From Escherichia coli (GTDB lineage Bacteria > Pseudomonadota > Gammaproteobacteria > Enterobacterales > Enterobacteriaceae), in NCBI RefSeq assembly GCF_050320075.1, contig NZ_CP190018.1: a stretch of DNA of 64,000 nucleotides; one strand, given 5' to 3'. Below the pieces are notes generated by a model. It made no database searches. It was not told the origin of the DNA and saw nothing but the letters and a program-made list of their open reading frames with translations. Of this stretch, positions 792 through 34,766 are shown in pieces (position 1 is the first letter of the stretch; every line of letters begins with the position of its first letter). The translations under genes were made by a program, and so were the position numbers.

Positions 792-1607
792 ATGAGCAGA
801 CATGCAACAGATTGGGCCTGGGAGACAGATCCAGGTAGCTCATCATTAAAGCTCATACTGCTCTCGATGGCTGACAGAGCCGATGAATATAACCTCTGCT
901 ACCCCAGCATAGAACGCCTCGTTAAAGACACTTGCCTGAATAAAAAAACCGTGCAGGCCGGGCTTATATCGCTCATGAAAATGGGGCTTATTTCAGATAC
1001 CGGAGAGAGAAAGGGAGCGACAAAAAGAGTGCGGGTTTTCTCTCTTAATATAACCAAAAACGGGAACATTAAAGGCAACCGGGAAGGGGGTAATGAACCC
1101 GAAATCGGTAATGTTACCGAAAACGGGAATATACCCAAAAACGGGATGTTGAATGATCCCAAAAACGGGATGTTGAATGATCCCAAAAACGGGATCCAGA
1201 ACCAGTCATATAACCAGTCATTTAACCAAGAGAGGGAGAGCAGGACAAAAAGCGGGGATTCTGTGCCTCATGACCCCGGAGCAAACAACGCCGTGATGAA
1301 TAACTTTGTTCCTCCTGGTGGGCCAGGGCAATTAGGCAAATTTGTCATGCATGAACAATGGCAGCCATCAGATGACTTTCTTCGGAAAAGCTCATTGCAG
1401 GGGATCTACCTGGACAGTCTGCCAACGGCACAGGAACTTGCAGAGTTCAGAATTTACTGGATGGCTGAGGGTAAGGCATACCATCAGGCACAGTGGGAGC
1501 AGAAGCTGGCAAGGCGGCTGCAGATTAGCAGACAGAAGCAATCAACATTACCTGATAACAACGTTCCGCACTGGAACAGCCCTGAAGCATGGGAGGATTT
1601 CTTGTGA
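792..1607 (+). CDS. Replication initiator, lambda O-like (N-terminal winged-helix DNA-binding domain, iterons inside the gene)
   Basis: 271 aa; GGAG RBS; repeated peptide PKNGMLND encoded by tandem DNA repeats; immediately followed by the P-like gene. Confidence 0.7.
   Translation: MSRHATDWAWETDPGSSSLKLILLSMADRADEYNLCYPSIERLVKDTCLNKKTVQAGLISLMKMGLISDTGERKGATKRVRVFSLNITKNGNIKGNREGGNEPEIGNVTENGNIPKNGMLNDPKNGMLNDPKNGIQNQSYNQSFNQERESRTKSGDSVPHDPGANNAVMNNFVPPGGPGQLGKFVMHEQWQPSDDFLRKSSLQGIYLDSLPTAQELAEFRIYWMAEGKAYHQAQWEQKLARRLQISRQKQSTLPDNNVPHWNSPEAWEDFL
1054..1200. repeat. Iteron array (probable phage origin): two perfect 24-bp units CCCAAAAACGGGATGTTGAATGAT (1134-1157, 1158-1181), a third truncated unit (1182-1200), and degenerate copies at 1054-1068 and 1116-1130
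   Basis: Direct tandem repeats read in the sequence, followed by the short direct repeat ACCAGTCATATAACCAGTCATTTAACC. Confidence 0.7.
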
Positions 1608-2389
1608 ACAACGTTTTTACCGCGATACAAAACCGTGACGGAGAAGCCCTTTCTCGCATGTCAGGTTATGAGCATCAGTACGTCAACAATGACAATGTGG
1701 TGAACATGTCAGCAGAGAGGCTTGTTGATGCCCTTTTTAAACAGCTGAAACAACTGTTTCCGGCGGCAGTGGTAACCAACCTGAAGACGCCAGAGCAGGA
1801 AGTTGCTGCAAAACAGCAGTGGATTGCTGCGTTTGCCGAAGGGGGGATCCGAACCCGTGAACAGGTTTCTGCTGGTATGCGCCACGCCCGCGCCAGTGAA
1901 TCTCCGTTCTGGCCGTCTCCAGGGCAATTTATCAAGTGGTGCAAAGACAGCAAGATGGTTCTTGGCGTCACCATTGACGATGTGATGGCGGAGTTTCACC
2001 GGTACAGCAAGGAAAAAAGTTTATATCCTGGTGGTCCCGAAAGATTCCCGTGGCGACATCCGGTTATGTACTGGGTCGTATGTGATACCCGCCGTGCAAT
2101 GTATCAGCGCCAGCTTAGCGAGATTGAGGTTGAGAAACACGCACGCAGGCTGCTCGATGATTGGGCGAAAAAGGTGGCTTCCGGACAGCAGATACCCGAT
2201 CCGGTGATCAGCATACAGGCAAAGCCAGAGCCCATGAGTACGCCTCCGGACACAGGGAGAGACGTTTACCATCCACCAGGGCGAAGTTTCGGGTGCATGC
2301 CTAACGCCGCCACCCTTGGGGGAATAACACCGGCGCAGTGGCTGATGGAGGAATACAGGCGGGGAAAGGCGGCAGGATTTATCAAGTAA
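1589..2389 (+). CDS. Replication protein P-like (DnaB helicase loader); start 1589 or GTG 1605
   Basis: Matches my recollection of lambda P, e.g. QQWIAAFAEGGIRTREQVSAGMRHARASESPFWPSPGQFIKWCKD versus lambda RQWVLAFRENGITTMEQVNAGMRVARRQNRPFLPSPGQFVAWCRE. Confidence 0.8.
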   Translation: MGGFLVNNVFTAIQNRDGEALSRMSGYEHQYVNNDNVVNMSAERLVDALFKQLKQLFPAAVVTNLKTPEQEVAAKQQWIAAFAEGGIRTREQVSAGMRHARASESPFWPSPGQFIKWCKDSKMVLGVTIDDVMAEFHRYSKEKSLYPGGPERFPWRHPVMYWVVCDTRRAMYQRQLSEIEVEKHARRLLDDWAKKVASGQQIPDPVISIQAKPEPMSTPPDTGRDVYHPPGRSFGCMPNAATLGGITPAQWLMEEYRRGKAAGFIK

Positions 2390-2426
2390 TACCAGCGCGA
2401 TAGCGCATTTTTTTACGTCTATATGA

Positions 2427-2503
2427 TTACCTGGAAGGTAATAAAATGTTCTAATCTCTATTGATTTCATGTCTTATGTGGTTTTTAATTACCTAAGGGG
2501 TAA
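2427..2503. promoter_or_regulatory. Two operator-like palindromes (2427-2441 TTACCTGGAAGGTAA; 2489-2503 TTACCTAAGGGGTAA) flanking a promoter region; the second abuts the start codon at 2507
   Basis: Perfect TTACC-N5-GGTAA copies read in the sequence. Confidence 0.6.
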
Positions 2504-2506
2504 ATC

Positions 2507-2854
2507 ATGAGAAAACAGATACAGGCTCTTGGTCGACTCAAAACAGGCCAGATGAACAAAACAGAATCTGCGTATTGCCAGCACCTTGAGCTGCGTAAAC
2601 GTGCAGGGGAAATCGCCTGGTATCGATTCGAGGGTATCAAGCTGCGGTTAGCTAATAACACGTTCTATACGCCCGATTTCGCTGTGATGCTCGCCACCGG
2701 CGAGATGGAGCTGCACGAAGTGAAAGGGGGATTCTGGACCGATGACGCCAGAGTGAAAACCAAAGTCGCCGCAGATCAGTATCCGTTCCGAATCATCGGG
2801 GTAACGGTTAAACCAAAGAAAGCAGGTGGTGGCTGGAACATCGAAGAGTTCTGA
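2507..2854 (+). CDS. DUF1064-like protein (putative PD-(D/E)XK-type nuclease of phage replication modules)
   Basis: 115 aa; motif YTPDFAV...ELHEVKGG resembles the DUF1064 signature as recalled. Confidence 0.5.
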   Translation: MRKQIQALGRLKTGQMNKTESAYCQHLELRKRAGEIAWYRFEGIKLRLANNTFYTPDFAVMLATGEMELHEVKGGFWTDDARVKTKVAADQYPFRIIGVTVKPKKAGGGWNIEEF

Positions 2855-2915
2855 ATCGACGATCTATTTAGTTATCAATGTAATCAATAAGTTATGTGGA
2901 TAAGCGAGGGTAAAG

Positions 2916-3482
2916 ATGGAAAGTAATATCAAAGGGTTAGTTGCCGCCGGGCATGAGATGGCTTCGGAACTGAAAGCAGAATGTGGTGCCGTTGATATGC
3001 GCAGTGTGGCAAAGCTGATCAGCGATTTGGCAACGCAACTGGAAGTGCAACTGGTGCGTGCTAATGCGCTGGCGGCGGAGAGTGCGGCAATGCATGAAAC
3101 TATTGAAGCCGTTCGGAGTGTTGCGGATAACTCCAGTGGAATTGCCGGATGGCATTTGAATGGCGATATCGCTACATGGGAAGAGATTCTTCCTGAAATT
3201 AACGATATCGAAACTCCAGCCACCGATGCTTTCCTGGCTGAAATTCGTGCGGAAGCACGCAACGAGGGGATTAACTATACCGCCAGCCGTCTTGCTGCTG
3301 CGTTCAATCACGGATTTATCAATAAATCTTTGCGTGAAGTTTTCGACGTTACACGCATGATTTTGTCAGCGAAAGAAGAGTTGGCTAATGAACCGCATCC
3401 GATTGATGGCCTGTCCGGTGAATATGCGGAGAAATCCCTTGAAGAATGGGCGGAACAGATTCGCAAAGGAGGCAAGCAGTGA
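2916..3482 (+). CDS. Hypothetical phage protein (nin-like region)
   Basis: 188 aa ORF, same strand, compact spacing. Confidence 0.5.
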   Translation: MESNIKGLVAAGHEMASELKAECGAVDMRSVAKLISDLATQLEVQLVRANALAAESAAMHETIEAVRSVADNSSGIAGWHLNGDIATWEEILPEINDIETPATDAFLAEIRAEARNEGINYTASRLAAAFNHGFINKSLREVFDVTRMILSAKEELANEPHPIDGLSGEYAEKSLEEWAEQIRKGGKQ

Positions 3483-3778
3483 GTGTATATCTTATTGATA
3501 AACGTCGACGTGGGCAACAAATACCACCTGTAGGAATTCCGAATCACACATGGTTTTGCGTACTTGATATCGATGGTATGGATGCGTTGGTTGACACTCG
3601 TCATTACTGCGATACCGCAACAGCTACTCCGGCGAAAGCAAAGAAAATGGCTGCTCTGATAGAAAACTGGACTCCACCTGATGGTTGGTGCAATGGGAAT
3701 GATCGAGATTGGCATGAAAAAATGAAGGGCTATATCTGCGATTTCTTACGTAAATGCAACGGATTCAGGGTGATGTGA
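3480..3778 (+). CDS. Hypothetical phage protein (GTG start)
   Basis: ORF overlapping the previous stop; start placement uncertain. Confidence 0.4.
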
Positions 3779-3779
3779 C

Positions 3780-4337
3780 ATGAACAAGATTGACTATCAG
3801 GCACTGCGTGAGGCGGCAGAGAAGGCAACGTGGGGAGACTGGGACTCATATAAACCACACCGTGGCGCACGTGGTTATGAGGTCCGACTAAGTAGTCAGG
3901 CCATTGCGCAACACGTTCTGAAAAACAACGCTGAATTTATTGCTGCCTTTAATCCAAAGATTGCTTTGGCACTACTGGATGAACGGGAAAGGAACCAGCA
4001 ATACATCAAATCCCGCGACCAGGAGAACGAGGATATTGCACTAACGGTAGGGAAGTTGCGCGTTGAGCTGGAAGCAGCAAAATCAAAACTCAACGAGCAG
4101 CGTGAGTATTACGAAGGTGTTATCTCTGATGGGAGTAAGCGCATAGCAGAGTTAGAAAGTGGTTCTCAGGCACAAAAGTTAGTTGAAGCAATCATTGTTG
4201 CGATAGAAAACGAACAGGAACGTCTTTTTGATGAAGATTACCTAATGGATTCGAAAGAATGCATTGACGTAATTCGTGAAGAAGTAAAGCGATGGGATGA
4301 TTCCCGCGCCGCTGGCATTGGCATCAAAGGAGAGTGA
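3780..4337 (+). CDS. ead/Ea22-like family protein
   Basis: 185 aa; N-terminus MNKIDYQALREAAEKATWGDWDSY resembles the lambdoid Ea22-like N-terminal signature; coiled-coil middle. Confidence 0.55.
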   Translation: MNKIDYQALREAAEKATWGDWDSYKPHRGARGYEVRLSSQAIAQHVLKNNAEFIAAFNPKIALALLDERERNQQYIKSRDQENEDIALTVGKLRVELEAAKSKLNEQREYYEGVISDGSKRIAELESGSQAQKLVEAIIVAIENEQERLFDEDYLMDSKECIDVIREEVKRWDDSRAAGIGIKGE

Positions 4338-4338
4338 T

Positions 4339-4602
4339 ATGGCAACTTTGACAAAAAAAGAACAAGCATGGTTGAGCGAATTACAGGACGTTCTTGATCG
4401 CTGCCCATCACCGAAAAAAATTGGTTTTTACACCATTGGCGATAAAAGCATTTACCTGTATGACCTGCGCCGCATGGATGAAATCATGGAGGCTCTTGAT
4501 AATCGTTCGTCAATGGATTGGTGTGTTGCTGTTCATGATATGAATGCCGGATTTGATGAAAAGATTTTATTCCCCTCATCAGTTGAAAGTACAGCAGGAT
4601 AA
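4339..4602 (+). CDS. Hypothetical phage protein
   Basis: ATG 4339 preceded by GGAGAG; 87 aa. Confidence 0.45.
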   Translation: MATLTKKEQAWLSELQDVLDRCPSPKKIGFYTIGDKSIYLYDLRRMDEIMEALDNRSSMDWCVAVHDMNAGFDEKILFPSSVESTAG

Positions 4603-4612
4603 GGACTAACAC

Positions 4613-5542
4613 ATGACCACTATTACCAAAGAGCGACTGCTGACAATCAGGCAGTGGCGCGAAACATACGGACCTGGTAGCAACGTTGTACTGCCAGCAG
4701 AAGAAGCGGAAGAACTGGCACGAATTGCTCTGGCATCGCTGGAGCAGAATGTACTATCGGGCAACTCTCCGCTTATTCCTGGTGAAGTGTTGTCCGCAAT
4801 CCGGGAGGTTGCCAGGATTCGTGCCGATTTCGATGATTTTGACGGTGACAGGCGAGGTATCGGTGATTGTCTGGATGAGGCCGAGCAAGAGCTTATCGTT
4901 ACCATTAACAAATATGCCAGTCAGTTGGCAGCAGAACCGATAGCGACTAATGACGTTCGAGAGCAGCAGACAGCCGTTCCGCCAGTTCCGGAAATACAGG
5001 ATGATGTCGCGCAAGCAATTGAAAATCTCAAGCAGAAGTTAGTGGAATGCAATCGCTATAACTACTGCGCAGATGCAGTTAAAGGCGTAGAGGATGCCTG
5101 CCATGCTGCCATGCTTCATAGTGCCGAACCTGCAAGTAATCATGAAGAGTTGCCGCTTGATTATCTCCAAGGTCAAAAAGATGGTCTTGAATGGGCTGCG
5201 CAGCTTGCAGAAGCAAATCACCCACAAACTGGCGACTGGCTTTACGATGACCCGCTGGAGGTGGCTAAAGCTATCAGAAAAGGTCCTGACATGCCCGAAT
5301 TCGATGGACCAACTCCGGCAACTCCGGATGGTTGGATAAGCTGTAGTGAGCGAATGCCGAACGATAAACAGTATGTTTGGTGTTGGGGTAAGTCTTACGG
5401 CTGGACTGAGTGCGATACCTTCGAAGGGTATTACGATTGGTCGAGAAACAAATGGTGGGCAGTTACTGACGATGGGGAAGAACCGGCATCGAAAGTAACC
5501 CACTGGATGCCGCTACCAGAACCGCCGCAGGAGGTGAAGTGA
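4613..5542 (+). CDS. DUF551 domain protein (nin-region type)
   Basis: 309 aa; C-terminal Trp-rich segment WCWGKSYGWTECDTFEGYYDWSRNKWWAV...THWMPLPEPP resembles DUF551. Confidence 0.55.
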   Translation: MTTITKERLLTIRQWRETYGPGSNVVLPAEEAEELARIALASLEQNVLSGNSPLIPGEVLSAIREVARIRADFDDFDGDRRGIGDCLDEAEQELIVTINKYASQLAAEPIATNDVREQQTAVPPVPEIQDDVAQAIENLKQKLVECNRYNYCADAVKGVEDACHAAMLHSAEPASNHEELPLDYLQGQKDGLEWAAQLAEANHPQTGDWLYDDPLEVAKAIRKGPDMPEFDGPTPATPDGWISCSERMPNDKQYVWCWGKSYGWTECDTFEGYYDWSRNKWWAVTDDGEEPASKVTHWMPLPEPPQEVK

Positions 5543-5548
5543 TGAACA

Positions 5549-5671
5549 AGTGCAACGCTCTGCTTTATGCCATGGTGATTGGTTTCGGCCTGGTTGCTGG
5601 TATCCGGGTTTATATTACCTGGGAGTCATTAATCAATCTGGCGTGGAGTGCGATTCGTGGCTAAATCCCCC
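5549..5671 (+). CDS. Small hydrophobic peptide, 40 aa (MNKCNALLYAMVIGFGLVAGIRVYITWESLINLAWSAIRG); not in the ORF track
   Basis: ATG 5549 preceded by strong SD GGAGGTGA; single predicted TM helix; translated by hand. Confidence 0.35.
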
Positions 5672-5995
5672 GCAGAACGCAAAGCCGCGCAGCGCGCTCG
5701 GCAGTCCGCCGCCGGTGAGCGCAAAATTGAACTGGTGCTGGATAAGCAGGAGCAGGAAATGCTGGAGCGTAACTGTGCCACGCGTCGCCCCGGGCGTGCG
5801 CCTTACGAATTTGGGGAGTATATAGCGTTACTGATCCGCCAGGATGATGCACGCGTGCGCGGGCGTATAAAATCGATTAGCAGAAAACGTTGCGGTAAGT
5901 GCGGCGAGAAAGTTCCCGTTAATTCATGCCCGTGTAATGGTGACTCGCAATGCTGGGTGACTAAAGGCTGGCATGAAACGAAATTAATAGTGTGA
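5657..5995 (+). CDS. Hypothetical protein with C-terminal Cys cluster (CGKCGEKVPVNSCPCNGDSQC); possible regulator
   Basis: ORF 5648..5995, likely GTG start at 5657; stop TGA lies inside the GTGACATGTCAC palindrome. Confidence 0.4.
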   Translation: MAKSPAERKAAQRARQSAAGERKIELVLDKQEQEMLERNCATRRPGRAPYEFGEYIALLIRQDDARVRGRIKSISRKRCGKCGEKVPVNSCPCNGDSQCWVTKGWHETKLIV

Positions 5996-6003
5996 CATGT
6001 CAC
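5992..6003. repeat. Perfect 12-bp palindrome GTGACATGTCAC (copy 1)
   Basis: Read directly; overlaps the stop codon at 5993-5995 and precedes the terminator at 6045. Confidence 0.9.
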
Positions 6004-6044
6004 GAGTAGATTATGCATGATGAATTTGATGGGTTTTGAATACT

Positions 6045-6070
6045 GCCGCCAACTATGGCGGCTTTATTTT
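6045..6070 (+). terminator. Rho-independent terminator
   Basis: Hairpin GCCGCC-AACTAT-GGCGGC followed by TTTATTTT. Confidence 0.6.
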
Positions 6071-6081
6071 GCATGGTACTA

Positions 6082-6114
6082 TTACCACAACGGTAACAAT
6101 TACCATGGTGGTTA
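6082..6114. promoter_or_regulatory. Operator-like palindromes at 6082-6096 (TTACCACAACGGTAA) and 6100-6114 (TTACCATGGTGGTTA, degenerate) upstream of terminase genes
   Basis: Read directly; they lie inside the over-extended track ORF 6036..6710. Confidence 0.55.
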
Positions 6115-6710
6115 TGATGCCTGCTGAACCTAAAACCTATAAACGCAAATCAACGCAATTTAAGCCACTAACCGCAATGCAGGAGGCTTATTGCCAGTCA
6201 TACATCAAAACGCCTGAAAACCAGACTCAGGCAGCGATTAACGCAGGATTCTCCCCAAATACAGCGGCAGTTAAAGCCAGTGTCATGATGCGCGATGAAC
6301 GCATTCAAAAACGGATTGCCGAGTTGATGGAGGAGCGCAACAAACGAATGCGCGTCAGTGCCGATTACGTTCTCATGCGCCTGGTGGAGATCGACCAGAT
6401 GGACGTGATTGATATCCTCAATGACGATGGGAGCCTTAAGCCAATCCGCGAGTGGCCGAAAATCTGGCGCACTACGCTTAGTGGCTTTGATCTGTCATCG
6501 ACCATCATGAACATGAACGAGGATTCGATAGAGACAATTCTCAAAAAAATTAAATGGCCTGACAAGGTGAAGAACCTCGAACTGATTGGTAAGCACGTCG
6601 ACGTCAATGCATTCAAAGAACGCCTGGATGTTAATGTGAATGTGACAATTGCTGATCGCATAGCGGCAGCCAGGAAGCGACTCAAAGAACGTCAGGATGG
6701 TAATCAGTGA
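6114..6710 (+). CDS. Terminase small subunit (start trimmed from track ORF 6036; true start 6105-6117 uncertain)
   Basis: Segment LTAMQEAYCQSYIKTPENQTQAAINAGFSPNTAAVKASVMMRDERIQKRIAEL resembles the terminase small-subunit DNA-binding domain; directly upstream of the large subunit. Confidence 0.6.
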   Translation: MMPAEPKTYKRKSTQFKPLTAMQEAYCQSYIKTPENQTQAAINAGFSPNTAAVKASVMMRDERIQKRIAELMEERNKRMRVSADYVLMRLVEIDQMDVIDILNDDGSLKPIREWPKIWRTTLSGFDLSSTIMNMNEDSIETILKKIKWPDKVKNLELIGKHVDVNAFKERLDVNVNVTIADRIAAARKRLKERQDGNQ

Positions 6711-8182
6711 CAGATACAGCGTTATCTCCTGAAGAGCAGTTGATCGAGGATATTGCAGGGTTCACTCACGATCCGCTTGGCTATGCCCTCTATGCGTTCC
6801 CGTGGGGGGAAGAGGGGACTGAACTGGCACATGCTACCGGCCCACGTCAGTGGCAGGCTGATGCGTTCCGAGAGATACGTGATCACCTGCAGAATCCAGA
6901 GACGCGCTATCAGCCGCTTATGCTGGCACGCGCTTCTGGTCACGGTATTGGTAAATCCGCATTCATCTCAATGCTGATCAACTGGGGCATGTCCACTTGC
7001 GAGGATTGTAAGGTCGTGGTGACCGCCAACACCGACAACCAGCTACGAACGAAGACCTGGCCGGAAATTATCAAGTGGTCGAACCTTGCTATCACGAAAG
7101 ACTGGTTTACCTGTACCGCTACTGCGATGTACAGCAATGATCCTGGGCACGACAAGCGGTGGCGAGCTGACGCAATCCCCTGGTCTGAGCACAACACTGA
7201 GGCATTCGCCGGACTACACAACGAGCGCAAACGCATCATCGTGGTATTCGATGAAGCGTCGAACATTGCGGATCTGGTGTGGGAAGTTGCTGAGGGTGCG
7301 CTTACGGACGAAGACACTGAGATTATCTGGGTGGCGTTCGGAAACCCTACACGTAATACCGGGCGTTTTCGCGAATGTTTCCGCAAATACAAACACCGCT
7401 GGAAAACTGCGCAGATTGACAGCCGGACGGTGGAAGGTACTAACAAACAGCAGTTGCAGAAATGGGTTGATGACTACGGGGAAGACAGCGACTTCGTTAA
7501 AATCCGTGTGCGCGGCATATTCCCTGATGCATCTGAATTGCAGTTTATCCCTACCGGTCTTACTGATGAGGCAATGAAACGGGTGGTAACCGCTGCGCAG
7601 GTTGCACATGCTCCGGTGATAATCGGCGTTGACCCGGCATACTCCGGAGTTGATGACGCTGTGATATACCTGCGGCAGGGGCTGCACAGTAAGGTGCTGT
7701 GGACTGGCAACAAGACCACTGACGATCTGATAATGGCGAAGCGTATCGCTGACTTTGAAGACCAGTACCAGGCTGACGCAGTGTTCATCGACTTCGGTTA
7801 CGGAACTGGTCTGAAGTCAATCGGTGACGGCTGGGGTCGTACATGGCAACTTGTTCCGTTCGGTGGCGCGTCTACTGACCCGCAGATGCTCAACAAGCGT
7901 GGGGAGATGTTCAACTCATGCAAGACATGGCTGAGGCTGGGCGGGATGCTGGATGACCAGGAAACAGCAGACGACCTGTCGACGGCAGAGTACAAAGTTC
8001 GCGTGGACGGTAAAATCGTTATCGAACCGAAGGAAGATATCAAGGAGCGGCTTGGGCGTTCGCCGGGTAAAGGCGATGCGCTACTGCTGACGTTTGCGTT
8101 CCCTGTGTCTAAGCGTCTGCGAATTCCCGGGCAGCAGAACCAGCAAGGCAAGGCCATTACAGATTACGATCCCTATGCTTAA
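6707..8182 (+). CDS. Terminase large subunit
   Basis: 491 aa; P-loop-like ASGHGIGKSAF; overlaps the small-subunit stop; typical size and position. Confidence 0.8.
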   Translation: MTDTALSPEEQLIEDIAGFTHDPLGYALYAFPWGEEGTELAHATGPRQWQADAFREIRDHLQNPETRYQPLMLARASGHGIGKSAFISMLINWGMSTCEDCKVVVTANTDNQLRTKTWPEIIKWSNLAITKDWFTCTATAMYSNDPGHDKRWRADAIPWSEHNTEAFAGLHNERKRIIVVFDEASNIADLVWEVAEGALTDEDTEIIWVAFGNPTRNTGRFRECFRKYKHRWKTAQIDSRTVEGTNKQQLQKWVDDYGEDSDFVKIRVRGIFPDASELQFIPTGLTDEAMKRVVTAAQVAHAPVIIGVDPAYSGVDDAVIYLRQGLHSKVLWTGNKTTDDLIMAKRIADFEDQYQADAVFIDFGYGTGLKSIGDGWGRTWQLVPFGGASTDPQMLNKRGEMFNSCKTWLRLGGMLDDQETADDLSTAEYKVRVDGKIVIEPKEDIKERLGRSPGKGDALLLTFAFPVSKRLRIPGQQNQQGKAITDYDPYA

Positions 8183-8232: not shown

Positions 8233-8259
8233 AGCCAGCTCATCGGCTGGCTGTTTGTG
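8233..8259. terminator. Bidirectional terminator hairpin
   Basis: AGCCAGC-TCATCG-GCTGGCT flanked by T-rich runs on both strands; ends + strand terminase transcription and the minus-strand gene 8273..8644. Confidence 0.6.
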
Positions 8260-8268
8260 ACATGTCAC
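8257..8268. repeat. Perfect 12-bp palindrome GTGACATGTCAC (copy 2)
   Basis: Read directly; between the stop of minus gene 8273..8644 and the terminator hairpin. Confidence 0.9.
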
Positions 8269-8847: not shown

Positions 8848-8924
8848 TGGCGTGGCATGCAGGATTCGAACCTGCGACCAACCGCTTAGAAGGCGGTTGC
8901 TCTGTCCAACTGAGCTAATGCCAC
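8848..8924 (-). tRNA. tRNA-Arg (anticodon UCU, reads AGA), phage-borne
   Basis: Hand-folded cloverleaf: 7-bp acceptor stem GTGGCAT/ATGCCAC, D-stem GCTC/GAGC, anticodon stem ACCGC/GCGGT with loop CUUCUAA, T-arm GCAGG-TTCGAAT-CCTGC, encoded 3' CCA. Confidence 0.9.
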
Positions 8925-22542: not shown

Positions 22543-25091
22543 TGGCAGCAAACGAATTTTTGACGCAGTGCGAGCGCAGTGTAAATGCTGCCGCTGGTCG
22601 CGAGCTTTCTTCCGATGAGATGGAGTCGCTGGTGCGTGACATGAACGACACCACTAGGCGAATTCTGGCGACCAATGAGGCGCTGTCTCTGGAAGAGGCC
22701 GCGATGCGCGCAGCGGAAGAACTGAGCAATGCCGATATGCTGGCAAAACAGATTGAGTCCCGCAATAAGGCAATCAACACCCGTATTGCCGCACAACGAC
22801 TTAGAGAGCTTCGTACTATCTGGAAAGACCGCCCGGATATCGGGCTTGAAGCAATGCTGGTTGGCCGCAACGATGCGCGTACCGGCGCCCGCCGGTCGGT
22901 ATCTTCGGAGGTGGCGCAACTGCGCGGCAAGTATCATTCCGGTATCAACTACGATTTTGACCGTGCCGGGCTGGTGCAATTCATCGCCAGCGGCAGCAAT
23001 GACAGGGAAATTGCCGATGCAATGTGGCGCATAGGGCGCGGGCAGTCAACTGACGGTATGACAAGGCAATCCGTAAGCGCTGCACAAATCATCATGAAAT
23101 GGCAGGAAACTGCGCACATTGATGAGAACCGCGCCGGGGCATGGATACGCAAAGAGCCGGGCTATATAGTGCGCCAGTCACACGACATCATGAAGATCCG
23201 CGCCGCAGGTTATGAAGCATGGCGAAATGCTATTCTCCCGCGCCTTGATGAGCGCACTTTTGACGGCGTGGCTGACCGCGAGCAGTTCATGCGTAACATT
23301 TATAACGGGCTGGCTTCCGGCGTGCATCTTACATCTGAAAAGCCCGATTGGATGAATGGCTTTAAGGGATCGGCGAACGCAGCTAAACGCGCCAGCCAAG
23401 AGCGAATTTTGCACTTCAAAGATGGTATCTCGTGGCACGAGTACAACCAGCAATTCGGCACCGGCAGCCTGCGAGAGGCGCTGTTTGGTGGCTTAAACAG
23501 CGCTGCCCGCACAACGGGCATGATGCGCGTACTGGGCACTAACCCACAGAACATGTTTAAGTACCTGACGGACACCATTGCTGAAGATATCAGCAAATCC
23601 GGAAGACCGGCAGCGTTGGCTGACTACATGACGAAGGTGCGTCGCATTAACCGTACCGTAATGCCGCAGGTTGACGGCTCGCTAAATATTCCTGGCAGCG
23701 TAGGCTGGGCCAATGCGTCGGCGGCTGTACGCGGCTGGTTGCGTATGAGCCAGCTTGGTGGCGCGGTAATCTCATCGTTTAACGACGTGCCTATCGCCGC
23801 TACCGAGATGCGCTACCAAGGGCAGAATTTTATGCAGGCGTTGCTTGGTGCTATGAGAGGCCGCTTCACGCGTTACAACAGCGCGGAGCAGAAAGAGATC
23901 CTTTCCTCTATCGGAGTTTATTCCGACTCCATGACGCAGGAAATCATCCGGCGTATATCTGGTGATGACACGCTGAATGGAAAACTTGGTCGCGCGCAGC
24001 AGCTTTTCTTTAAGTACAACCTCATGAACTTCTGGACCGAGAGCGGTCGCAACAGCAACGCCATGATGATAACCAACTGGCTTGCAAAGAATGCTGACCA
24101 GCCTCATGCGCGGCTACCGGAAGACCTGCGACGCGTGCTGGATCTGCACGGTATTGGCGAACGTGAGTGGGAAATTTTTCGCAACATGGACATGGCCGAT
24201 AGCGAAGGTCGTAAGTTCATGACGACCAGCGGCATCCGCGGCGTGCCTGACGAAGTGATTGCCGGTTATGTAGAGAGTAAGGGGATCAAGCCAACGCAGC
24301 GCGCTATCGCTGACGCACGCGATCAATTGGAAGGGCAGTTGCGCGGCTACATCCTTGACCGCCTGAATATCGCCATGTCAGAGCCTGGCGATCGCACGCA
24401 GGCGTTTATGAAGATGGGCACGGTGCCAGGAACGGTGGCTGGGGAAGCAATACGATTCGCTGGTCAGTACAAATCGTTCACTGCAAGCTTCATGCAGAAC
24501 GTACTAGGACGCGAAGTATTCGGGCGTGGTTATATTCCTGCTGGGCTTGGTGAGTCGAAAACCGGATCGCTGACGAATGCTCTGCTGCGTAACGGGAAGG
24601 GGGCTTTCCTTGGTGCTGCAAACCTCTTTGTCTGGGCGACTATGTTTGGTTATATCTCCATGCAGTCAAAACTCATGCTGAAAGGGCAAACACCACGCCC
24701 GGCAGATGCCAAGACGTTTCTCGCAGCCGCATCTCAGGGGGGCGGTCTTGGCATCTTGGGTGACTTCATGTTTGGCGAGGTCAACCGCATGGGGGCCGGG
24801 CCGGTTACGTCGCTAATGGGACCGGCAGCATCGAACGCTGACAGCATTATCACGCTGCTCCAGCAGACCACGAGAGGGGATGCAGATTTGGGTGACTGGT
24901 ATCGCACGGCACTTGACAATACGCCATTCCTCAACGTGTTCTGGCTTCGTACGGCGATGAATGGTTTAATATTGAACCGGATACAAGATGCCCTTGACCC
25001 AGGCTCTCTTGAGCGTTATCAGCGCCGTGTTGAGCGTGAGCAGGGTAACGAATTTCTGATCCCACCATCGCAGTTCATGCTAGGGAAGTAA
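22539..25091 (+). CDS. Putative ejection/internal virion protein
   Basis: 850 aa, coupled. Confidence 0.45.
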   Translation: MMAANEFLTQCERSVNAAAGRELSSDEMESLVRDMNDTTRRILATNEALSLEEAAMRAAEELSNADMLAKQIESRNKAINTRIAAQRLRELRTIWKDRPDIGLEAMLVGRNDARTGARRSVSSEVAQLRGKYHSGINYDFDRAGLVQFIASGSNDREIADAMWRIGRGQSTDGMTRQSVSAAQIIMKWQETAHIDENRAGAWIRKEPGYIVRQSHDIMKIRAAGYEAWRNAILPRLDERTFDGVADREQFMRNIYNGLASGVHLTSEKPDWMNGFKGSANAAKRASQERILHFKDGISWHEYNQQFGTGSLREALFGGLNSAARTTGMMRVLGTNPQNMFKYLTDTIAEDISKSGRPAALADYMTKVRRINRTVMPQVDGSLNIPGSVGWANASAAVRGWLRMSQLGGAVISSFNDVPIAATEMRYQGQNFMQALLGAMRGRFTRYNSAEQKEILSSIGVYSDSMTQEIIRRISGDDTLNGKLGRAQQLFFKYNLMNFWTESGRNSNAMMITNWLAKNADQPHARLPEDLRRVLDLHGIGEREWEIFRNMDMADSEGRKFMTTSGIRGVPDEVIAGYVESKGIKPTQRAIADARDQLEGQLRGYILDRLNIAMSEPGDRTQAFMKMGTVPGTVAGEAIRFAGQYKSFTASFMQNVLGREVFGRGYIPAGLGESKTGSLTNALLRNGKGAFLGAANLFVWATMFGYISMQSKLMLKGQTPRPADAKTFLAAASQGGGLGILGDFMFGEVNRMGAGPVTSLMGPAASNADSIITLLQQTTRGDADLGDWYRTALDNTPFLNVFWLRTAMNGLILNRIQDALDPGSLERYQRRVEREQGNEFLIPPSQFMLGK

Positions 25092-25092
25092 T

Positions 25093-25464
25093 ATGAACAG
25101 AATTATATTAATGATTATTCTTATGCTTTTAGCTGTAAAATCTTTTGCAGATACTACCTCACCGTTAATGATTCAGCCTAAAAATGGGGAAACACTGGAG
25201 GACTCTAAAAAGCATACAATGGAATATTTTGGATGTATAAAAGGGCAGGCCGTAAAATACGCTAAGACAGGAGAAAGTGTTGATTCTATATCCAAAGCTT
25301 CGGTTGTGTCATGCGAGTCGTACATACAAAAGATTGCTGAATCAAATATATACTATTTAAATTCCTCTCAAGACGGTAAGCGGAAATTTATTGGAAGGCT
25401 TAAATCAGATGGTGAAAATTTAGCAACGAAATTTGCTATGGATGAAAAGCTAAAAAATAAATAG
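25093..25464 (+). CDS. AT-rich moron: small secreted/periplasmic protein (signal peptide MNRIILMIILMLLAVKSFA)
   Basis: 123 aa; visibly lower GC than flanking genes; N-terminal signal-peptide-like segment. Confidence 0.55.
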   Translation: MNRIILMIILMLLAVKSFADTTSPLMIQPKNGETLEDSKKHTMEYFGCIKGQAVKYAKTGESVDSISKASVVSCESYIQKIAESNIYYLNSSQDGKRKFIGRLKSDGENLATKFAMDEKLKNK

Positions 25465-25471
25465 GTGACAC

Positions 25472-25768
25472 ATGCAAGCGATAGGATTCATTGTTTATAT
25501 CGTCGTTGGTCTTTTTCAGTTGGCAGCAATTATGGCTGGGCTTGAATCATGGTGGGGATTGCACTGGATAATTGCAGCCCCCATTGCTTTCATCGTGAGC
25601 TATATTCCATTTGTTGGAGCGATTGTTGGTATGGTTGGTGCTGTGGATGTATGGCGGTGGGAGTGGTGGCAGGCTGGCCTTCTCTTCTTTGGTGGGATCA
25701 TCTTTGCTATTGTCTGCGGTGGAATGTCATCATTTTTCGAACGGCTATCATTCAGAAAAGGAACGTGA
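25472..25768 (+). CDS. Small integral membrane protein (about 3 TM helices)
   Basis: 98 aa, hydrophobic segments; stop TGA inside the GTGACATGTCAC palindrome. Confidence 0.55.
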   Translation: MQAIGFIVYIVVGLFQLAAIMAGLESWWGLHWIIAAPIAFIVSYIPFVGAIVGMVGAVDVWRWEWWQAGLLFFGGIIFAIVCGGMSSFFERLSFRKGT

Positions 25769-25776
25769 CATGTCAC
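25765..25776. repeat. Perfect 12-bp palindrome GTGACATGTCAC (copy 3)
   Basis: Read directly; overlaps stop 25766-25768; followed by a terminator. Confidence 0.9.
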
Positions 25777-25800
25777 AGGCCGCTTTCGCGGCCTTGTTTT
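25777..25800 (+). terminator. Rho-independent terminator
   Basis: AGGCCGC-TTTC-GCGGCCT followed by TGTTTT. Confidence 0.65.
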
Positions 25801-25961
25801 TAACGAATGCCACCGCCACCCGGGCGGGAATCCGCAGAACGCCCACCGCAGCGGGAGCCGTCAGCGGCAGTATCGCTGTCGTGCTGACAACGACCGGCAA
25901 AGGCCTGAGTTGAAGCTACCAGAGACAACAAAACGAACAGTGCAGCAAATGCTTTTTTCAT
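25800..25961 (-). CDS. Candidate small secreted peptide, 53 aa (signal peptide MKKAFAALFVLLSLVASTQAFA + 31-aa Gly/Ser/Asp-rich part with 2 Cys)
   Basis: Internal ATG of track ORF 25800..26033; sigma70-like promoter on the minus strand (TTGACG 26002-25997, 16-nt spacer, TATAGA 25980-25975); weak RBS. Confidence 0.3.
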   Translation of the reverse strand: MKKAFAALFVLLSLVASTQAFAGRCQHDSDTAADGSRCGGRSADSRPGGGGIR

Positions 25962-26030
25962 TGTGAAATTTCCATCTATAAGCCACCTCAATGTGGCGTC
26001 AATGAGTGTAGCACTGACTTTTGTTTCGTC

Positions 26031-26054
26031 CACAAAAAAGCCCGCAGCGCGGGC
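26031..26054 (-). terminator. Rho-independent terminator ending the minus-strand accessory operon
   Basis: GCCCGC-AGC-GCGGGC immediately after stop 26055-26057, followed on the minus strand by CTTTTTTGT. Confidence 0.7.
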
Positions 26055-26603
26055 TTACTTTTCTTCAGGTTTGTTGTCTTCAGATTTCTTCTTGATGCTT
26101 GGTTTTTGTCTAAGAACGAAAATACCAGCCACTGCAACAACTGTACCGATCACTGTGCCAGCTAGAACTTCATGACCTGTTAAACCTAATAATGTTGCAC
26201 AAGCTACTGTAAAAATAGTTGCACTCAGGCCAAACCACTGCCCACGTTTATCTCTATTAATAGCCCCGTCAAGTGCCTTTTCCTCCATTTTCTGGCGGTG
26301 AGCAAACTCCTTCTCCGTCAGCTGGAAGATGCGTTCGGGGGCATCAGGTAAAATATCCTGATACCCGCGAAGCAGATAGGGGGGAGGAAGCGGACCCTGA
26401 AACGCATGGTGAGCGACAACTATCTCCTGAATTTCAGGGCGATCAAGAACTCTTGTGAAGGCATCTGGGTGTTGAATGATCTCGTTACTTAGCCCTTCCT
26501 CAACTTCCTCGAACTCAGTTTCTTCGTTATCACTTGGTTGCCCAATAGATTTTTGCATATTTGTCGAAGGACATTCCTTTAGCTTCTGGTTTTCCTCTTG
26601 CAT
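26055..26603 (-). CDS. Membrane protein: acidic N-terminal soluble domain plus C-terminal TM helices (possibly DUF2335-like)
   Basis: 182 aa; hydrophobic stretch WFGLSATIFTVACATLLGLTGHEVLAGTVIGTVVAVAGIFVL near the C-terminus; start 26603 or 26558. Confidence 0.5.
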   Translation of the reverse strand: MQEENQKLKECPSTNMQKSIGQPSDNEETEFEEVEEGLSNEIIQHPDAFTRVLDRPEIQEIVVAHHAFQGPLPPPYLLRGYQDILPDAPERIFQLTEKEFAHRQKMEEKALDGAINRDKRGQWFGLSATIFTVACATLLGLTGHEVLAGTVIGTVVAVAGIFVLRQKPSIKKKSEDNKPEEK

Positions 26604-26856
26604 TTGAGTTTTTCCCTGTCACTATTGCCCATTTTCCGCCAGCAGGCGCTGCAATTTTTTTTCCGTTCTTTACTATATATTCAGCATAAACACGATTTTC
26701 TGACCGTCTGAGATCGTCTCCGACCATATTCATGTCTCTTGATATAACTTTGACGACAGAGTCTCGGTTTAAAGCCTTGGCATAGTTGGAGCCAGGAACG
26801 ATACCCAAAGGGGTGCCAGACTCTATAGCCAGCTCCTTGACATATCTTCTGCTCAT
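26530..26856 (-). CDS. Hypothetical small protein (108 aa from ATG 26856)
   Basis: GAGG RBS before MSRRYVKELA; overlaps the 5' end of the downstream membrane-protein ORF. Confidence 0.45.
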   Translation of the reverse strand: MSRRYVKELAIESGTPLGIVPGSNYAKALNRDSVVKVISRDMNMVGDDLRRSENRVYAEYIVKNGKKIAAPAGGKWAIVTGKNSNARGKPEAKGMSFDKYAKIYWATK

Positions 26857-26977
26857 ATGAACCTCAACCAATCGACTTTACCAATCGGGTAATTTTAAAC
26901 ATGAGTATAATGCTTTTAACTGCAACGAGTGTAAACAATTATTGATAATTGTAGGCACATCCCTGTGCCGCCGCCCG

Positions 26978-27664
26978 TCAGAAGAACCCTGCTTTGTCGT
27001 TGATGTACTCCGCGTGCGTCTGGATATCACGCAGGCATTTACTCACACCGACGATGTAGCAGAACATGGTGGTCAACTCCGCCGCCGCGCCCGATACGTC
27101 GTGCCCGTCGTCCTGTAACTGGTTCAGCAAATTCATCAGCAGTGAGTTCTCCGTCAGGCCGAGAACACCAGACGGCGAATGAATCAGGCTACGGTAGCCG
27201 GGCTTCAGTGGGGCGCTGTAGGTTTTGTTCTCTATCTTCATTGCCTGCATCACTGCTGATGCTGTGGCGTTGGCTACCTGGTCGGCAACCATCTTTATGC
27301 GTTCTTCCTGCGGGAGCGAGTTTTTAATGTAACTTCCGGTGCGGCGGATCTGAGGAAGAACCTCACCTGTAACCCATTTGCGAAAGCGGTAGGGGATAGT
27401 GCCTGGTGTTACTGCATCGCGGCAGCGGAGGATCAGTGTGTAGAGGCCTGACTCGTTGATAATATTGGTTTCGCCTTGACGGCCTAAGTTAAATTTAGCC
27501 CTTTCATCATCATCAAGAGATTTTATTGACATAGTGGGGTTTGTCAGTTGAAGAGCTTTAATAACGTCTTTGGCAACAAACCAAGGATTTCCATCAATAA
27601 CAATGGCTCGAATGGTTGCTTCTGATTCAAAATGAAAAACAGATGGGGTTACGTTAGCAGTCAT
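26978..27664 (-). CDS. Bro-N domain antirepressor-like protein (start trimmed to ATG 27664)
   Basis: N-terminal FHFESEATIRAIVIDGNPWFVAKDVIKAL...NIINESGLYTLILRCRDA resembles Bro-N; SD AAGGTGA before ATG 27664. Confidence 0.6.
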   Translation of the reverse strand: MTANVTPSVFHFESEATIRAIVIDGNPWFVAKDVIKALQLTNPTMSIKSLDDDERAKFNLGRQGETNIINESGLYTLILRCRDAVTPGTIPYRFRKWVTGEVLPQIRRTGSYIKNSLPQEERIKMVADQVANATASAVMQAMKIENKTYSAPLKPGYRSLIHSPSGVLGLTENSLLMNLLNQLQDDGHDVSGAAAELTTMFCYIVGVSKCLRDIQTHAEYINDKAGFF

Positions 27665-27932
27665 AGTGATCACCTTTGTAGTTAGGTTAATCACCACTAC
27701 CGACGCCAATCGGTTGGTGGTGAACTGTGCAGGGTTGGCGTAACCGGCTACAAAGGACCCGGCGCACCTTTCGGTGCCCCCACACAGCCCACCATAGAAT
27801 AGGTGCGCTTTACACATAAAAAAAACCGCTTATGCGGCATATGTGCCTCTGTAGTAACTCGGGACGCCAATCCCGGCACTGGATTTTGCCAGTGCCCGAT
27901 TACTATGGCACAAGAGGAGTGCGTTGTAAATT

Positions 27933-27947
27933 TACCGCAAAGGTAAA
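27933..27947. promoter_or_regulatory. Operator-like palindrome TTACCGCAAAGGTAA upstream of the Bro-N gene
   Basis: Perfect copy, intergenic. Confidence 0.6.
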
Positions 27948-28235: not shown

Positions 28236-28312
28236 CTTAATCTTCTCCATGCAATAACTGTATATTTATACAGTATCAAATAATTTGTTTGCTATCCAGC
28301 ACGTTTTGCAAA

Positions 28313-28327
28313 TTACCTGAAAGGTAA
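28313..28327. promoter_or_regulatory. Operator-like palindrome TTACCTGAAAGGTAA in the divergent region before the tailspike gene
   Basis: Perfect copy; identical to the copy at 9248. Confidence 0.6.
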
Positions 28328-28431
28328 TATCTATTCATATTCACAGTCTTTCTATCCATATATGGTTTTTTGGGTAATAGAATAACCAGATATGCGGCGC
28401 AACGGGTGCTGCGACTATCTGGAGATTTAAC

Positions 28432-33937: not shown

Positions 33938-34456
33938 TTAGCTCTTTTCAGGACATTTCGTATTTGGCTGAATACGCGTTTCGTTATACGTCGTGGTAAT
34001 AACAACGGCTAAACCTGTCGTAAACTGGCACTCTTTACCCACCTGGGTAGAGGTATACACTTTGGTGCCTTCCTTATACGTTAGAGAAACACCTTCCACT
34101 AAGGTTTTATCATTCACCATAGAACCCGCTGCCGCGCCAACAGCTCCGCCGCCAACTGCACCTGCCGTCGTTCCGGAATTGCTGCCAGACCCCACGTTGT
34201 GGCCGATTACACCGCCAGCGACTGCACCAATAAGCGCGCCGAAGGCTTGTGCGTTCCGTTTATTTTGGGAGTTGTCTACGGCAACTTTTGCGGGAAGAAT
34301 GGAAATAATATTAACGGTTTTAGTTTCTTGTTTGGTATTCAGTTGATCGGTTTGATAAACATCGGCGGCATGATCATCAGCATTTGACTGGCATCCTGCC
34401 AGAGTGAATGACGCTAACATTGCCACAGGCAGAAGACATTTTTTAAATTTCATCAC
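33938..34456 (-). CDS. yfgH: YfgH, glycine-zipper outer-membrane lipoprotein
   Basis: 172 aa; lipobox LAGC; Gly-rich GAVAGGVIGHNVGSG segment. Confidence 0.75.
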   Translation of the reverse strand: MMKFKKCLLPVAMLASFTLAGCQSNADDHAADVYQTDQLNTKQETKTVNIISILPAKVAVDNSQNKRNAQAFGALIGAVAGGVIGHNVGSGSNSGTTAGAVGGGAVGAAAGSMVNDKTLVEGVSLTYKEGTKVYTSTQVGKECQFTTGLAVVITTTYNETRIQPNTKCPEKS

Positions 34457-34766
34457 TATTCCTTGTTATACACATTACTAAAAATAAGACATTTAAGATC
34501 ATCAAAAGAAGAAAGTAAATGTATTGCGTATAAAGGAATAGATTAAATTTATTAAAATTCATGTGGGAAATAATTTATAAAAATACATCATTAAAATATA
34601 TGTATTAATTTTATATTTATTTCGCAGCCAAACAGGATAAACATCTGTCAGGACAAAGACGTAAAATTTAAGATGAAAGAATATCTGCCGCTTTGATAAT
34701 CCCAAAGAGCAAAAGCATCCGACAGCGAGGTGCCGTTATGTTCTGTGAAAGTGGAGAAGGTAACCG

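Follow-up and report, generated by a model that had tools for sequence, protein, structure and literature searches.

A conserved palindrome at the 3' end of the PHROG 536 gene points to a probable regulator of operon boundaries in an epsilon15/phiV10-type prophage of E. coli

The last early gene of an epsilon15/phiV10-type (Uetakevirus) prophage of E. coli probably encodes a regulator that binds specific DNA sites at operon boundaries, with terminator read-through as its probable target. The gene belongs to family PHROG 536, and a 12-base palindrome, GTGAC-NN-GTCAC, overlaps or adjoins the stop codon of PHROG 536 genes in most of the lineages compared. To our knowledge, how late genes are timed in epsilon15/phiV10-type phages is not known, and a literature search found no study of the PHROG 536 family. 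What is new is that this widespread family receives a concrete predicted DNA target together with a short list of genomic sites.

The gene closes a block at positions 2916-5995 of the window, the 64,000-nucleotide stretch of DNA analyzed here. According to the ORF list, seven tightly packed plus-strand ORFs fill the whole block (Table 1). GTG 3479 overlaps the preceding stop codon (3480-3482), the 3778/3780 and 4337/4339 junctions each leave a one-base gap, ATG 5542 overlaps TGA 5540-5542, and the last two ORFs share 8 nt (5657 versus 5664). A sequence-only reading had described seven small, tightly packed ORFs, several of them with overlapping stop and start codons, and both coordinates and junctions agree with it. 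Since each of the seven matches a PHROG with E <= 1e-29, they are genuine genes of the phage, not ORFs that arose by chance. For the second gene, GTG 3479 is the likely start; profile alignments begin at residues 12-15 of the longest ORF. Counterparts of the first gene, found by synteny, are labeled EaE-like in phage ZX5 and Eae-like in epsilon15. Separate segments of the 4613-5542 product match several different PHROGs.

Much of the sequence-only reading holds for this block. Its Ea22-like and DUF551 labels are borne out by Pfam (Ead_Ea22, 4e-37; DUF551, 2e-17), and the block does lie between replication genes (O/P-like and DUF1064 upstream) and packaging genes (terS and terL downstream). It is also a typical accessory early region, a mosaic that has only 18-73% in common with any single phage. 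The description "nin-like" fits the position but not the content, which is of the P22/933W "ea" type (Eae, Ead/Ea22, EaA/DUF551); no Pfam match to NinB, NinG, NinH or other Nin families was found among the seven products. Judged by sequence, genes 1-6 are interchangeable "ea"-type accessory early genes to which no function can be assigned, and the block itself is ordinary.

Table 1. Genes, palindromes, terminators and operators in the block and its surroundings (window coordinates)
Position	Strand	Feature	Remarks
792-1607		O-like	upstream flank
1589-2389		Phage_lambda_P	upstream flank
2507-2854		DUF1064 resolvase	upstream flank
2916-3482	+	Eae-like accessory protein, 188 aa	phrog_614/492; without Pfam family
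3479-3778	+	DUF7739 protein, ~99 aa	Pfam DUF7739, phrog_1239
3780-4337	+	Ead/Ea22-like protein, 185 aa	PF13935 4e-37; phrog_250 1.5e-65
4339-4602	+	phrog_1714 protein, 87 aa	full-length match, 1e-50
4613-5542	+	mosaic EaA-like protein, 309 aa	C-terminal DUF551, residues 240-306, 2e-17
5542-5664	+	hydrophobic membrane peptide, 40 aa	phrog_5525
5657-5995	+	PHROG 536 protein, 112 aa; predicted ribbon-helix-helix and 4-Cys knuckle	family of epsilon15 gp49 and N15 gp46
5992-6003	.	home palindrome GTGACATGTCAC	G-TGA-C contains gene stop codon 5993-5995
6013-6039	+	remnant ATGCATGATGAATTTGATGGGTTTTGA, 8 codons of a 70-aa gene	gene intact there in ~20 related prophages
6045-6070	+	intrinsic terminator T1, GCCGCCAACTATGGCGGC + TTTATTTTG	end of early operon; annotated at equivalent epsilon15 spot
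6082-6114	.	two CI-type operator palindromes, TTACCACAACGGTAA and TTACCATGGTGGTTA	directly upstream of terS; epsilon15 equivalent is an annotated repressor site
6117-6710		terS (Terminase_2)	downstream flank
6707-8182		terL	downstream flank
8233-8252	.	terminator hairpin T2	between convergent terL (+) and Phage_gp49_66 gene (-)
8257-8268	.	second perfect palindrome	4 nt past stop of minus-strand gene 8644-8273
25765-25776	.	third perfect palindrome	contains TGA stop 25766-25768
25777-25801	+	intrinsic terminator T3, AGGCCGCTTTCGCGGCCT + TGTTTTT	directly after third palindrome

The seventh product, scored as a 115-residue translation from GTG 5648, matches the PHROG 536 profile with E = 5.6e-54 (residues 5-114 against profile positions 3-114 of 115); Pfam and NCBIfam gave no match. 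The family comprises ~730 clusters at 90% identity and is carried by phages of Enterobacterales, Vibrio and Aeromonas. Epsilon15 gp49 (81% identity), ZF40 gp22 (66%), phiKO2 gp45 (~40%) and N15 gp46 (~37%) share with it a length of ~110 aa, the Cys pattern and a palindrome at the 3' end of the gene. These relatives are uncharacterized, and their labels ("transcriptional regulator", "hypothetical", "RepB-like") come without experiments. Among 61 members C79 and C82 are invariant, and R8, R13, P87 and C99 are conserved in at least 90%; the latter four are invariant within a 30-sequence subset. The Cys cluster noted by the sequence-only reading is thus real. The DNA-binding type of N-terminus that it proposed likewise agrees with a basic N-terminal half, encoded at the early/packaging junction in a gene that RefSeq and PHROGs label "transcriptional regulator".

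An AF2 monomer model of the product (pLDDT 92.7) contains a strand-helix-helix fold, and a basic, Arg-rich N-terminal helix is predicted to precede this ribbon-helix-helix (RHH) core. When two copies were modeled as a dimer joined by a linker (pTM 0.68), residues 22-28 and 164-170, the same stretch in each copy, became strands that the monomer model lacks. Curated RHH models are matched weakly, RHH_5 and RepB-RCR_reg by two members each and RHH_1 and TacA1 by one each of the 61, with E of at least 0.013. Foldseek against PDB and BFVD returned one RHH chain, a fragment of the PHROG 536 family and nothing else useful. The models suggest that the product is most likely a small dimeric RHH protein with a Zn-type Cys4 knuckle.

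Of 15 distant lineages, 11 have a perfect palindrome no more than 40 nt from the stop codon (chance P ~3e-42), and perfect sites number 21 across eight genomes, where 0.3 would be expected. Both expectations assume uniform base composition, and the phages scanned were carriers of the gene; shuffles of the window allowed one mismatch. The diverse loci were obtained from family-encoding contigs and GenBank phage records, as single-protein scans gave only close relatives. Protein identity among the 15 lineages is only 30-65% and their virion and packaging modules are unrelated; those with the palindrome include podo-, N15-, P2-, Mu-like and Vibrio phages. All 21+ sites are 12 bp long with a 2-nt center, which varies (AT, AG, TG, CG, AC, GG) between invariant arms. 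The extended consensus is Y-GTGAC-NN-GTCAC-R (14-bp duplex form, YGTGACNNGTCACR and TGTGACATGTCACG; 12-bp pattern, GTGACNNGTCAC). Invariant arms, the absence of compensatory changes and a variable "loop" indicate base-specific recognition of the duplex by a symmetric dimer, and the protein that recognizes this consensus on double-stranded DNA is most likely the PHROG 536 product. The palindrome was rejected as a pac or cos site because the packaging systems of the carriers are unrelated (cos in N15 and P2-like phages, headful in podoviruses); the site follows the PHROG 536 gene, not terminase.

The prophage has three perfect palindromes, beginning at 5992, 8257 and 25765, and in all three cases the site falls in the interval from a stop codon to an intrinsic terminator. 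The same layout occurs at 3/3 sites in epsilon15 and 2/3 in Tyrion, and pairs of the T3 type are found in both. The home site accompanies the gene, in most cases overlapping its TGA stop; Uetakeviruses carry two sites besides it. Here and in epsilon15 one site ends the early operon, one a solitary minus-strand cargo gene beside terL, and one the structural operon, whose last gene here (ORF 25472-25768) has its stop codon inside the third palindrome. The adjacent cargo varies while hairpin and palindrome are kept. On the minus strand, the second palindrome is 4 nt ahead of the T2 hairpin. Between the home site and T1 there are 22 nt in epsilon15 and 41 nt in this prophage, and loci with an intact 70-aa gene have ~230 nt there; the geometry of site and terminator is not fixed. 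CI-type operators (TTACC-N5-GGTAA) sit upstream of terS and of the structural and tailspike genes; the palindrome does not. An RNA mini-hairpin formed by the palindrome is predicted beside each terminator, and no alternative pairing of the palindrome with the terminator was predicted. A sigma70 promoter over the home palindrome (GTGACA-18-CATGAT) was rejected as a conserved element because its -10 falls within what is left of the deleted 70-aa gene and ~20 related loci have another sequence right after the palindrome; the promoter-like match overlapping the site here is weak and non-conserved.

The PHROG 536 gene is last or nearly last in the early operon of epsilon15-like, ZF40, P2-like and Vibrio-type phages. 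In Pantoea AH07 the homologue lies in a leftward operon, next to xis. Homologues occur alongside dedicated late regulators, Q in N15 and AH07 and Mor in a Mu-like phage, and possibly Ogr-type systems as well. No recognizable homologue of Q, Mor or Ogr was seen in the examined regions of epsilon15/phiV10-type phages. In Vibrio phage K303 a promoter-leader-terminator unit follows the site and precedes the lysis and packaging genes, and no other candidate late regulator was seen in its early operon. A related marine contig, L085, also has such a unit ahead of its late genes. Clear units of this kind near a site are confined to the Vibrio-type loci and the N15 antirepressor locus. Other perfect sites lie inside coding regions (Q in AH07; repA in N15 and N15-like L090; cII in ZF40) or 1-20 nt upstream of the next SD or ATG (N15 gp47, K303 terS and gene 32, Mu-like gemA, the 70-aa gene variant, L108/L110).

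The reading that we tentatively put first, at somewhat less than even confidence, is that an RHH-Cys4 dimer on the palindrome alters terminator read-through, with increased read-through (antitermination) as the favored direction. The PHROG 536 protein would be made last from the early operon and would then bind the palindromes, its paired beta-strands lying over the variable center and its basic N-terminal helices (R8, R13) reading the GTGAC arms. Lying right behind the polymerase while the terminator hairpin folds, the bound protein would change the amount of transcription that passes the terminator. Read-through would couple early transcription to terS, terL and the downstream late genes, a logic like that of lambda Q on an unrelated fold. 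Several observations count against this reading. The T2 site precedes its terminator on the minus strand only, where read-through would produce terL antisense RNA, and site-terminator spacing is variable. In this prophage the regions upstream of the late operons carry operators of their own, some homologues share a genome with Q or Mor, and most RHH proteins are repressors.

The same protein and sites could act with the opposite sign, as a roadblock or repressor that insulates transcription units, blocking RNA polymerase or backing up termination and silencing downstream genes. We regard this as possible, if on the unlikely side. It fits the extra sites within Q, repA and cII or just ahead of ribosome-binding sites at least as well as antitermination does, and T2 and T3 lie between convergent units, their hairpins having runs on both sides. 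Against it, a roadblock 1-4 nt upstream of a good intrinsic terminator seems redundant, and an early protein that cuts read-through into terS and terL brings no obvious benefit. In K303, moreover, the late genes sit behind a terminator that some factor must overcome, and the early operon offers no other candidate.

The sequence-only reading had noted that a late-gene regulator would be expected here, and the position directly before terS stands. Classical activation, in which the protein recruits RNA polymerase upstream of the terS, structural and tailspike promoters, now has only a slim chance of being correct. Beyond gene position, predicted DNA-binding fold and database label, it draws on one N15 site, centered ~66 bp upstream of the isrK/C4 leader start, and on Vibrio-type loci with a sigma70-like promoter 53-97 bp past the site. 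However, the site and the promoter or gene start that follows it are 24 to ~800 bp apart, the 70-aa gene variant puts ~190 bp between terS and an unchanged site, and late operons here have CI-type operators in place of the palindrome. The AH07 locus beside xis does not suit it either, and the coexistence of homologues with Q or Mor, and possibly with Ogr-type systems, weakens it further. Equally doubtful is a MatP-like organizer that would use a few matS-like sites to bridge or condense the phage genome or to exclude host SMC/nucleoid factors. Palindrome arms identical to matS, an equal taxonomic range (Enterobacterales, Vibrio, Aeromonas) and 1-3 sites per genome, some within coding DNA, are in its favor. 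MatP homology was rejected, as hhalign of the family against MatP was not significant (E = 0.23), even with the RHH helices in register. The protein also has neither the four-helix bundle nor the coiled coil of MatP, the site is 12 and not 13 bp, and the strict stop-codon/terminator placement in Uetakeviruses would go unexplained. Least probable, and very unlikely, is an RNA element. In this view the transcript would fold into a mini-hairpin, GUGA-CNNG-UCAC, to which the Arg-rich N-terminal helix binds much as lambda N binds boxB, controlling termination or translation of the next gene. The invariant R8 and R13, the transcription of all sites ahead of terminators or ribosome-binding sites and the mini-hairpins adjoining the terminators are consistent with it, but the stem is only 4-5 bp, the arm and "loop" pattern points to the duplex, and RHH is a double-stranded DNA-binding fold.

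If the protein does control terminator read-through, this would be a new way of switching from early to late genes. A broader and quite unlikely version proposes a new class of DNA-loaded elongation regulators. In it, an RHH dimer on a matS-like 12-bp palindrome upstream of a terminator would engage RNA polymerase through a TraR-like Zn knuckle and turn the terminator off (or on), serving as the early-to-late switch of Q-less temperate phages and perhaps sharing ancestry with MatP/matS. If instead it is a MatP-like organizer, phages would be tied to a system by which their hosts structure the chromosome. Under both readings, the conserved palindrome-terminator units help to mark where operons end and where mosaic junctions fall when these prophages are annotated. 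Phage phiV10 serves as a diagnostic reporter phage, and related prophages alter the O-antigens of Salmonella and E. coli.

Among known systems, E. coli MatP/matS resembles the present one in its RHH core after a basic helix (predicted here), in the arms GTGAC/GTCAC and in host range. The matS site, GTGAC[AG]N[TC]GTCAC (GTGACRNYGTCAC; PMC3603311), has 13 bp, one center base more than the palindrome. The PHROG 536 protein differs in being phage-encoded with few sites per genome and in having a Cys4 knuckle in place of the bundle and coiled coil; a profile search of PDB sequences with the family did not find MatP. The knuckle resembles the C4 zinc finger of DksA/TraR (CxxCG..(I/L)P, then 16-17 residues to the next Cys), and YbiI and TraR chains are matched weakly (E ~0.04). 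The fourth ligand is elsewhere, however, there is no acidic-tipped helix that could enter the RNAP secondary channel, and 0/61 members match zf-dskA_traR (PF01258, CxxC-x17-CxxC). With lambda Q/QBE/tR' the family shares a gene placed last in the early operon, a Zn-type Cys cluster and a putative site directly downstream of the gene and upstream of the terminator that precedes the late genes. It differs in its predicted RHH fold and in sites that lie outside any clear promoter in this prophage; the Q families PF06323 and PF03589 did not match the PHROG 536 protein, whereas a separate scan with that library did identify genuine Q genes in N15 and AH07. The RHH fold and the dimer, both predicted here, are common to Arc, Mnt, CopG, Omega, MetJ and TacA, whose operators are likewise short and either palindromic or repeated; one dimer of Omega binds each heptad (ATCAC-type). 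Only 2-3/61 PHROG 536 members give even weak Pfam RHH matches. Unlike these repressors, the PHROG 536 protein is predicted to have an extra conserved N-terminal helix and a C-terminal Zn knuckle, and its putative operator is found where its own gene ends, not at the promoter.

Each of the seven tightly packed small ORFs between the replication genes and terS matches a PHROG at E ≤ 1e-29, and the block described in the sequence-only reading is therefore real. Junctions fall at GTG 3479/stop 3482, 3778/3780, 4337/4339 and ATG 5542/TGA 5540–5542, and the last two ORFs overlap by 8 nt (5657/5664). The Ea22-like and DUF551 labels were borne out by Pfam, with Ead_Ea22 in 3780–4337 and DUF551 at the C-terminus of 4613–5542; DUF7739 is a further match in 3479–3778. 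Syntenic genes in related phages are labelled Eae-, Ead/Ea22- and EaA-like. The term "nin-like" suits the position of the block but not its gene content, as none of its products matched a Nin family. Megablast of 2400–6100 matched 522 phage records with a best coverage of at most 73%. Conservation is patchy, as expected for a mosaic accessory region. Nothing unusual was seen in the first six ORFs, to which no function could be assigned.

The block belongs to a prophage of the epsilon15/phiV10/TL-2011b type (genus Uetakevirus), which occupies approximately the first 35 kb of the window in the E. coli chromosome. Core E. coli DNA (pdeF-ppx-ppk1) runs from about 36 kb on. G+C is 0.40–0.45 at 25000–27000 and 34000–36000, compared with about 0.52 elsewhere in the window. 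In the first dip are minus-strand cargo genes that follow terminator T3, among them one for a DUF2335 membrane protein (26055–26603); the second is close to the junction of prophage and host. A prophage-borne tRNA-Arg (anticodon TCT; 8848–8924, minus strand) separates the Phage_gp49_66 gene from the structural operon.

Coordinates of replication and packaging genes, GTGAC-NN-GTCAC sites and CI-type operators
Feature	Position	Strand	Remark
O-like initiator	792–1607	+	
lambda-P-like loader	1589–2389	+	
DUF1064/Holliday-junction resolvase	2507–2854	+	directly before the seven-ORF block
terS	6117–6710	+	after the seven-ORF block
terL	6707–8182	+	
Site 1	5992		followed by 8-codon remnant (6013–6039), then intrinsic terminator T1 (6045–6070)
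Site 2	8257		4 nt past the Phage_gp49_66 gene stop and 4 nt before hairpin 8252–8233 (both on - strand)
Site 3	25765		contains TGA of the structural operon's last gene; abuts terminator T3 (25777–25801)
TTACC-N5-GGTAA, perfect	96, 2427, 2489, 6082, 9248, 26878, 27932, 28313		
TTACC-N5-GGTAA, one mismatch	144, 481, 6100		

The final ORF (5657–5995) encodes a 112-aa member of PHROG 536 (E = 5.6e-54) that has no Pfam or NCBIfam family. Clustered at 90% identity, PHROG 536 forms about 730 groups, almost all of which bear the name "hypothetical"; at 50% identity there are 148 representatives (1.84 billion proteins searched). No study of the family was found in the non-subscription literature. Members include epsilon15 gp49, Tyrion gp52, N15 gp46, phiKO2 gp45, ZF40 gp22, proteins of phiV10, SPN1S and P2-like Yersinia phages, and numerous Vibrio and Aeromonas phage proteins. 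Alignment of 61 full-length members showed C79 and C82 to be invariant and R8, R13, E54, L59, P87 and C99 to be at least 90% conserved. The consensus runs from a basic helix (ERKxAQRxR) through a strand (xVExxL) and two helices to a Cys knuckle (CxxCGxxLPxxC...GDxxC). The knuckle resembles DksA/TraR in its CxxC-to-Cys spacing, and profile matches to TraR and YbiI are marginal (E ~0.04). Because none of the 61 members matches the Pfam DksA/TraR zinc-finger model, this possible kinship is treated as no more than a lead.

The gene ends inside a perfect 12-bp palindrome, GTGACATGTCAC (5992–6003), which contains its TGA stop codon (5993–5995). The 3' ends of homologues from 15 lineages of very different phages were compared. 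A perfect GTGAC-NN-GTCAC overlaps the stop codon of N15 gp46 and of the homologues in Pantoea phage AH07, a P2-like Yersinia phage and four lineages that are marine or metagenomic. It follows the stop by 1–14 nt in ZF40 and two further lineages, and a Mu-like phage carries it inside the gene, about 40 nt ahead of the stop. Thus in 11/15 lineages the site and the stop are no more than 40 nt apart (binomial P = 3e-42). It is more distant in two lineages and was not found near the gene in the other two. Eight complete genomes, all carrying a PHROG 536 gene, contain 21 perfect sites against 0.3 expected from uniform base composition (P = 2e-31). Perfect sites also occur inside the Q-type antiterminator gene of AH07 (L112 34430–34441), where the site encodes VTCH in the Cys-rich part, and within the 5' portion of the repA genes of N15 (L098 33237–33248) and an N15-like prophage (L090 92–103).

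The arms are invariant and often longer (YGTGAC...GTCACR), the central dinucleotide is free, and no compensatory changes were found among the lineages compared. This pattern favours recognition of duplex DNA, by a symmetric dimer, over an RNA stem, leaving an RNA-level role of the palindrome possible but less likely. Strand residues of the protein differ between lineages that share identical arms while R8 and R13 are conserved, suggesting that the basic helices would read the arms and the ribbon would lie over the centre. The firm part is that 5657–5995 encodes a predicted ribbon-helix-helix (RHH)-plus-zinc DNA-binding protein whose putative cognate site belongs to its gene cassette.

Exactly three perfect copies of the palindrome occur in the window. 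The remnant after site 1 consists of the first codon and last seven codons of a 70-aa gene, the rest having been deleted. That gene, which has no Pfam family, is intact between the home palindrome and T1 in about 20 related prophages (693–905 in the related prophage L013). Site 2 sits between the minus-strand Phage_gp49_66 gene and convergent terL; in 80 close relatives both this palindrome and the hairpin are retained, whereas the cargo on their right varies. Epsilon15 has three palindromes at equivalent places, beside terminators that its authors annotated. Three are likewise present in Enterobacter phage Tyrion, and two of these form a palindrome-terminator unit despite a different upstream gene; no strong hairpin was seen at the middle one.

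The sites mark the ends of three operons, each between a stop codon and a terminator, which suggests that the PHROG 536 protein would control terminator passage. Read-through is the favoured direction. The protein is made last from the early operon, site 1 precedes the terminator that divides the early genes from terS/terL, and the regions examined in the epsilon15/phiV10 phage type revealed no homologue of Q, Mor or Ogr. In the early operon of Vibrio phage K303, PHROG 536 is the only candidate regulator; its gene is followed by a promoter-leader-terminator unit and then by the lysis and packaging genes, and a K303-related marine contig (L085) has such a unit as well. Bound to site 1, the last early-operon product would let transcription pass T1 into terS/terL.

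A roadblock or insulator, which uses the same sites with the opposite sign, is almost as probable. Repression is the usual role of RHH proteins, the terminators at sites 2 and 3 (T2 and T3) lie between convergent units, and other phages have sites just 5' of ribosome-binding sites or within Q, repA or cII. Weaker still is the proposal of the sequence-only reading that the protein activates late promoters. Site-to-promoter distances are variable, other operators occupy the late upstream regions, homologues occur together with Q (N15, AH07) or Mor (the Mu-like phage), and the AH07 gene is located in a leftward operon beside xis.

Those other operators are TTACC-N5-GGTAA palindromes, distinct from GTGAC-NN-GTCAC, with 11 copies in the prophage; the whole window has 15 matches, where about 1 would be expected. 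Their presence in front of terS, the tailspike gene and the structural operon suggests that the repressor directly controls the late units. The operators also occur at the immunity region, and the epsilon15 equivalents are annotated as repressor operators.

C4 antisense RNA (79.5 bits) and isrK (74.2 bits) were identified by Rfam at 27713–27895 (minus strand), directly 5' of a Bro-N antirepressor-like ORF (26978–27817, minus strand), with a CI-type operator at 27932–27946. The arrangement is a P1/N15-style anti-immunity module, and N15 itself has the isrK and C4 pair (28301–28489), with one of the N15 GTGAC-NN-GTCAC sites about 60 nt upstream of it. K303 has a Qrr-like sRNA (RF00378; L094 5678–5775, genome 33406–33503) between the PHROG 536 and holin genes, ending in a strong terminator. 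At 46.6 bits (E = 1.4e-5) it falls just short of the gathering score of 50, and it may be a phage copy of a quorum-sensing sRNA. Just 3' of the PHROG 536 gene of Yersinia phage vB_YenM_31.17 (L095 ~5390–5415) there is a near-perfect LexA box, TACTGTACATAAATACAGTAT, together with a consensus-like promoter. Both precede a 64-aa ORF, an arrangement that resembles the SOS-controlled tum antirepressor of coliphage 186.

MatP is also an RHH protein. Profile comparison of PHROG 536 with MatP gave no significant match (E = 0.23), and a MatP-like structural role is possible but less likely. The PHROG 536 palindrome has arms identical to those of the 13-bp E. coli matS, GTGAC[AG]N[TC]GTCAC (PMC3603311), and differs from it in spacing by one base pair.
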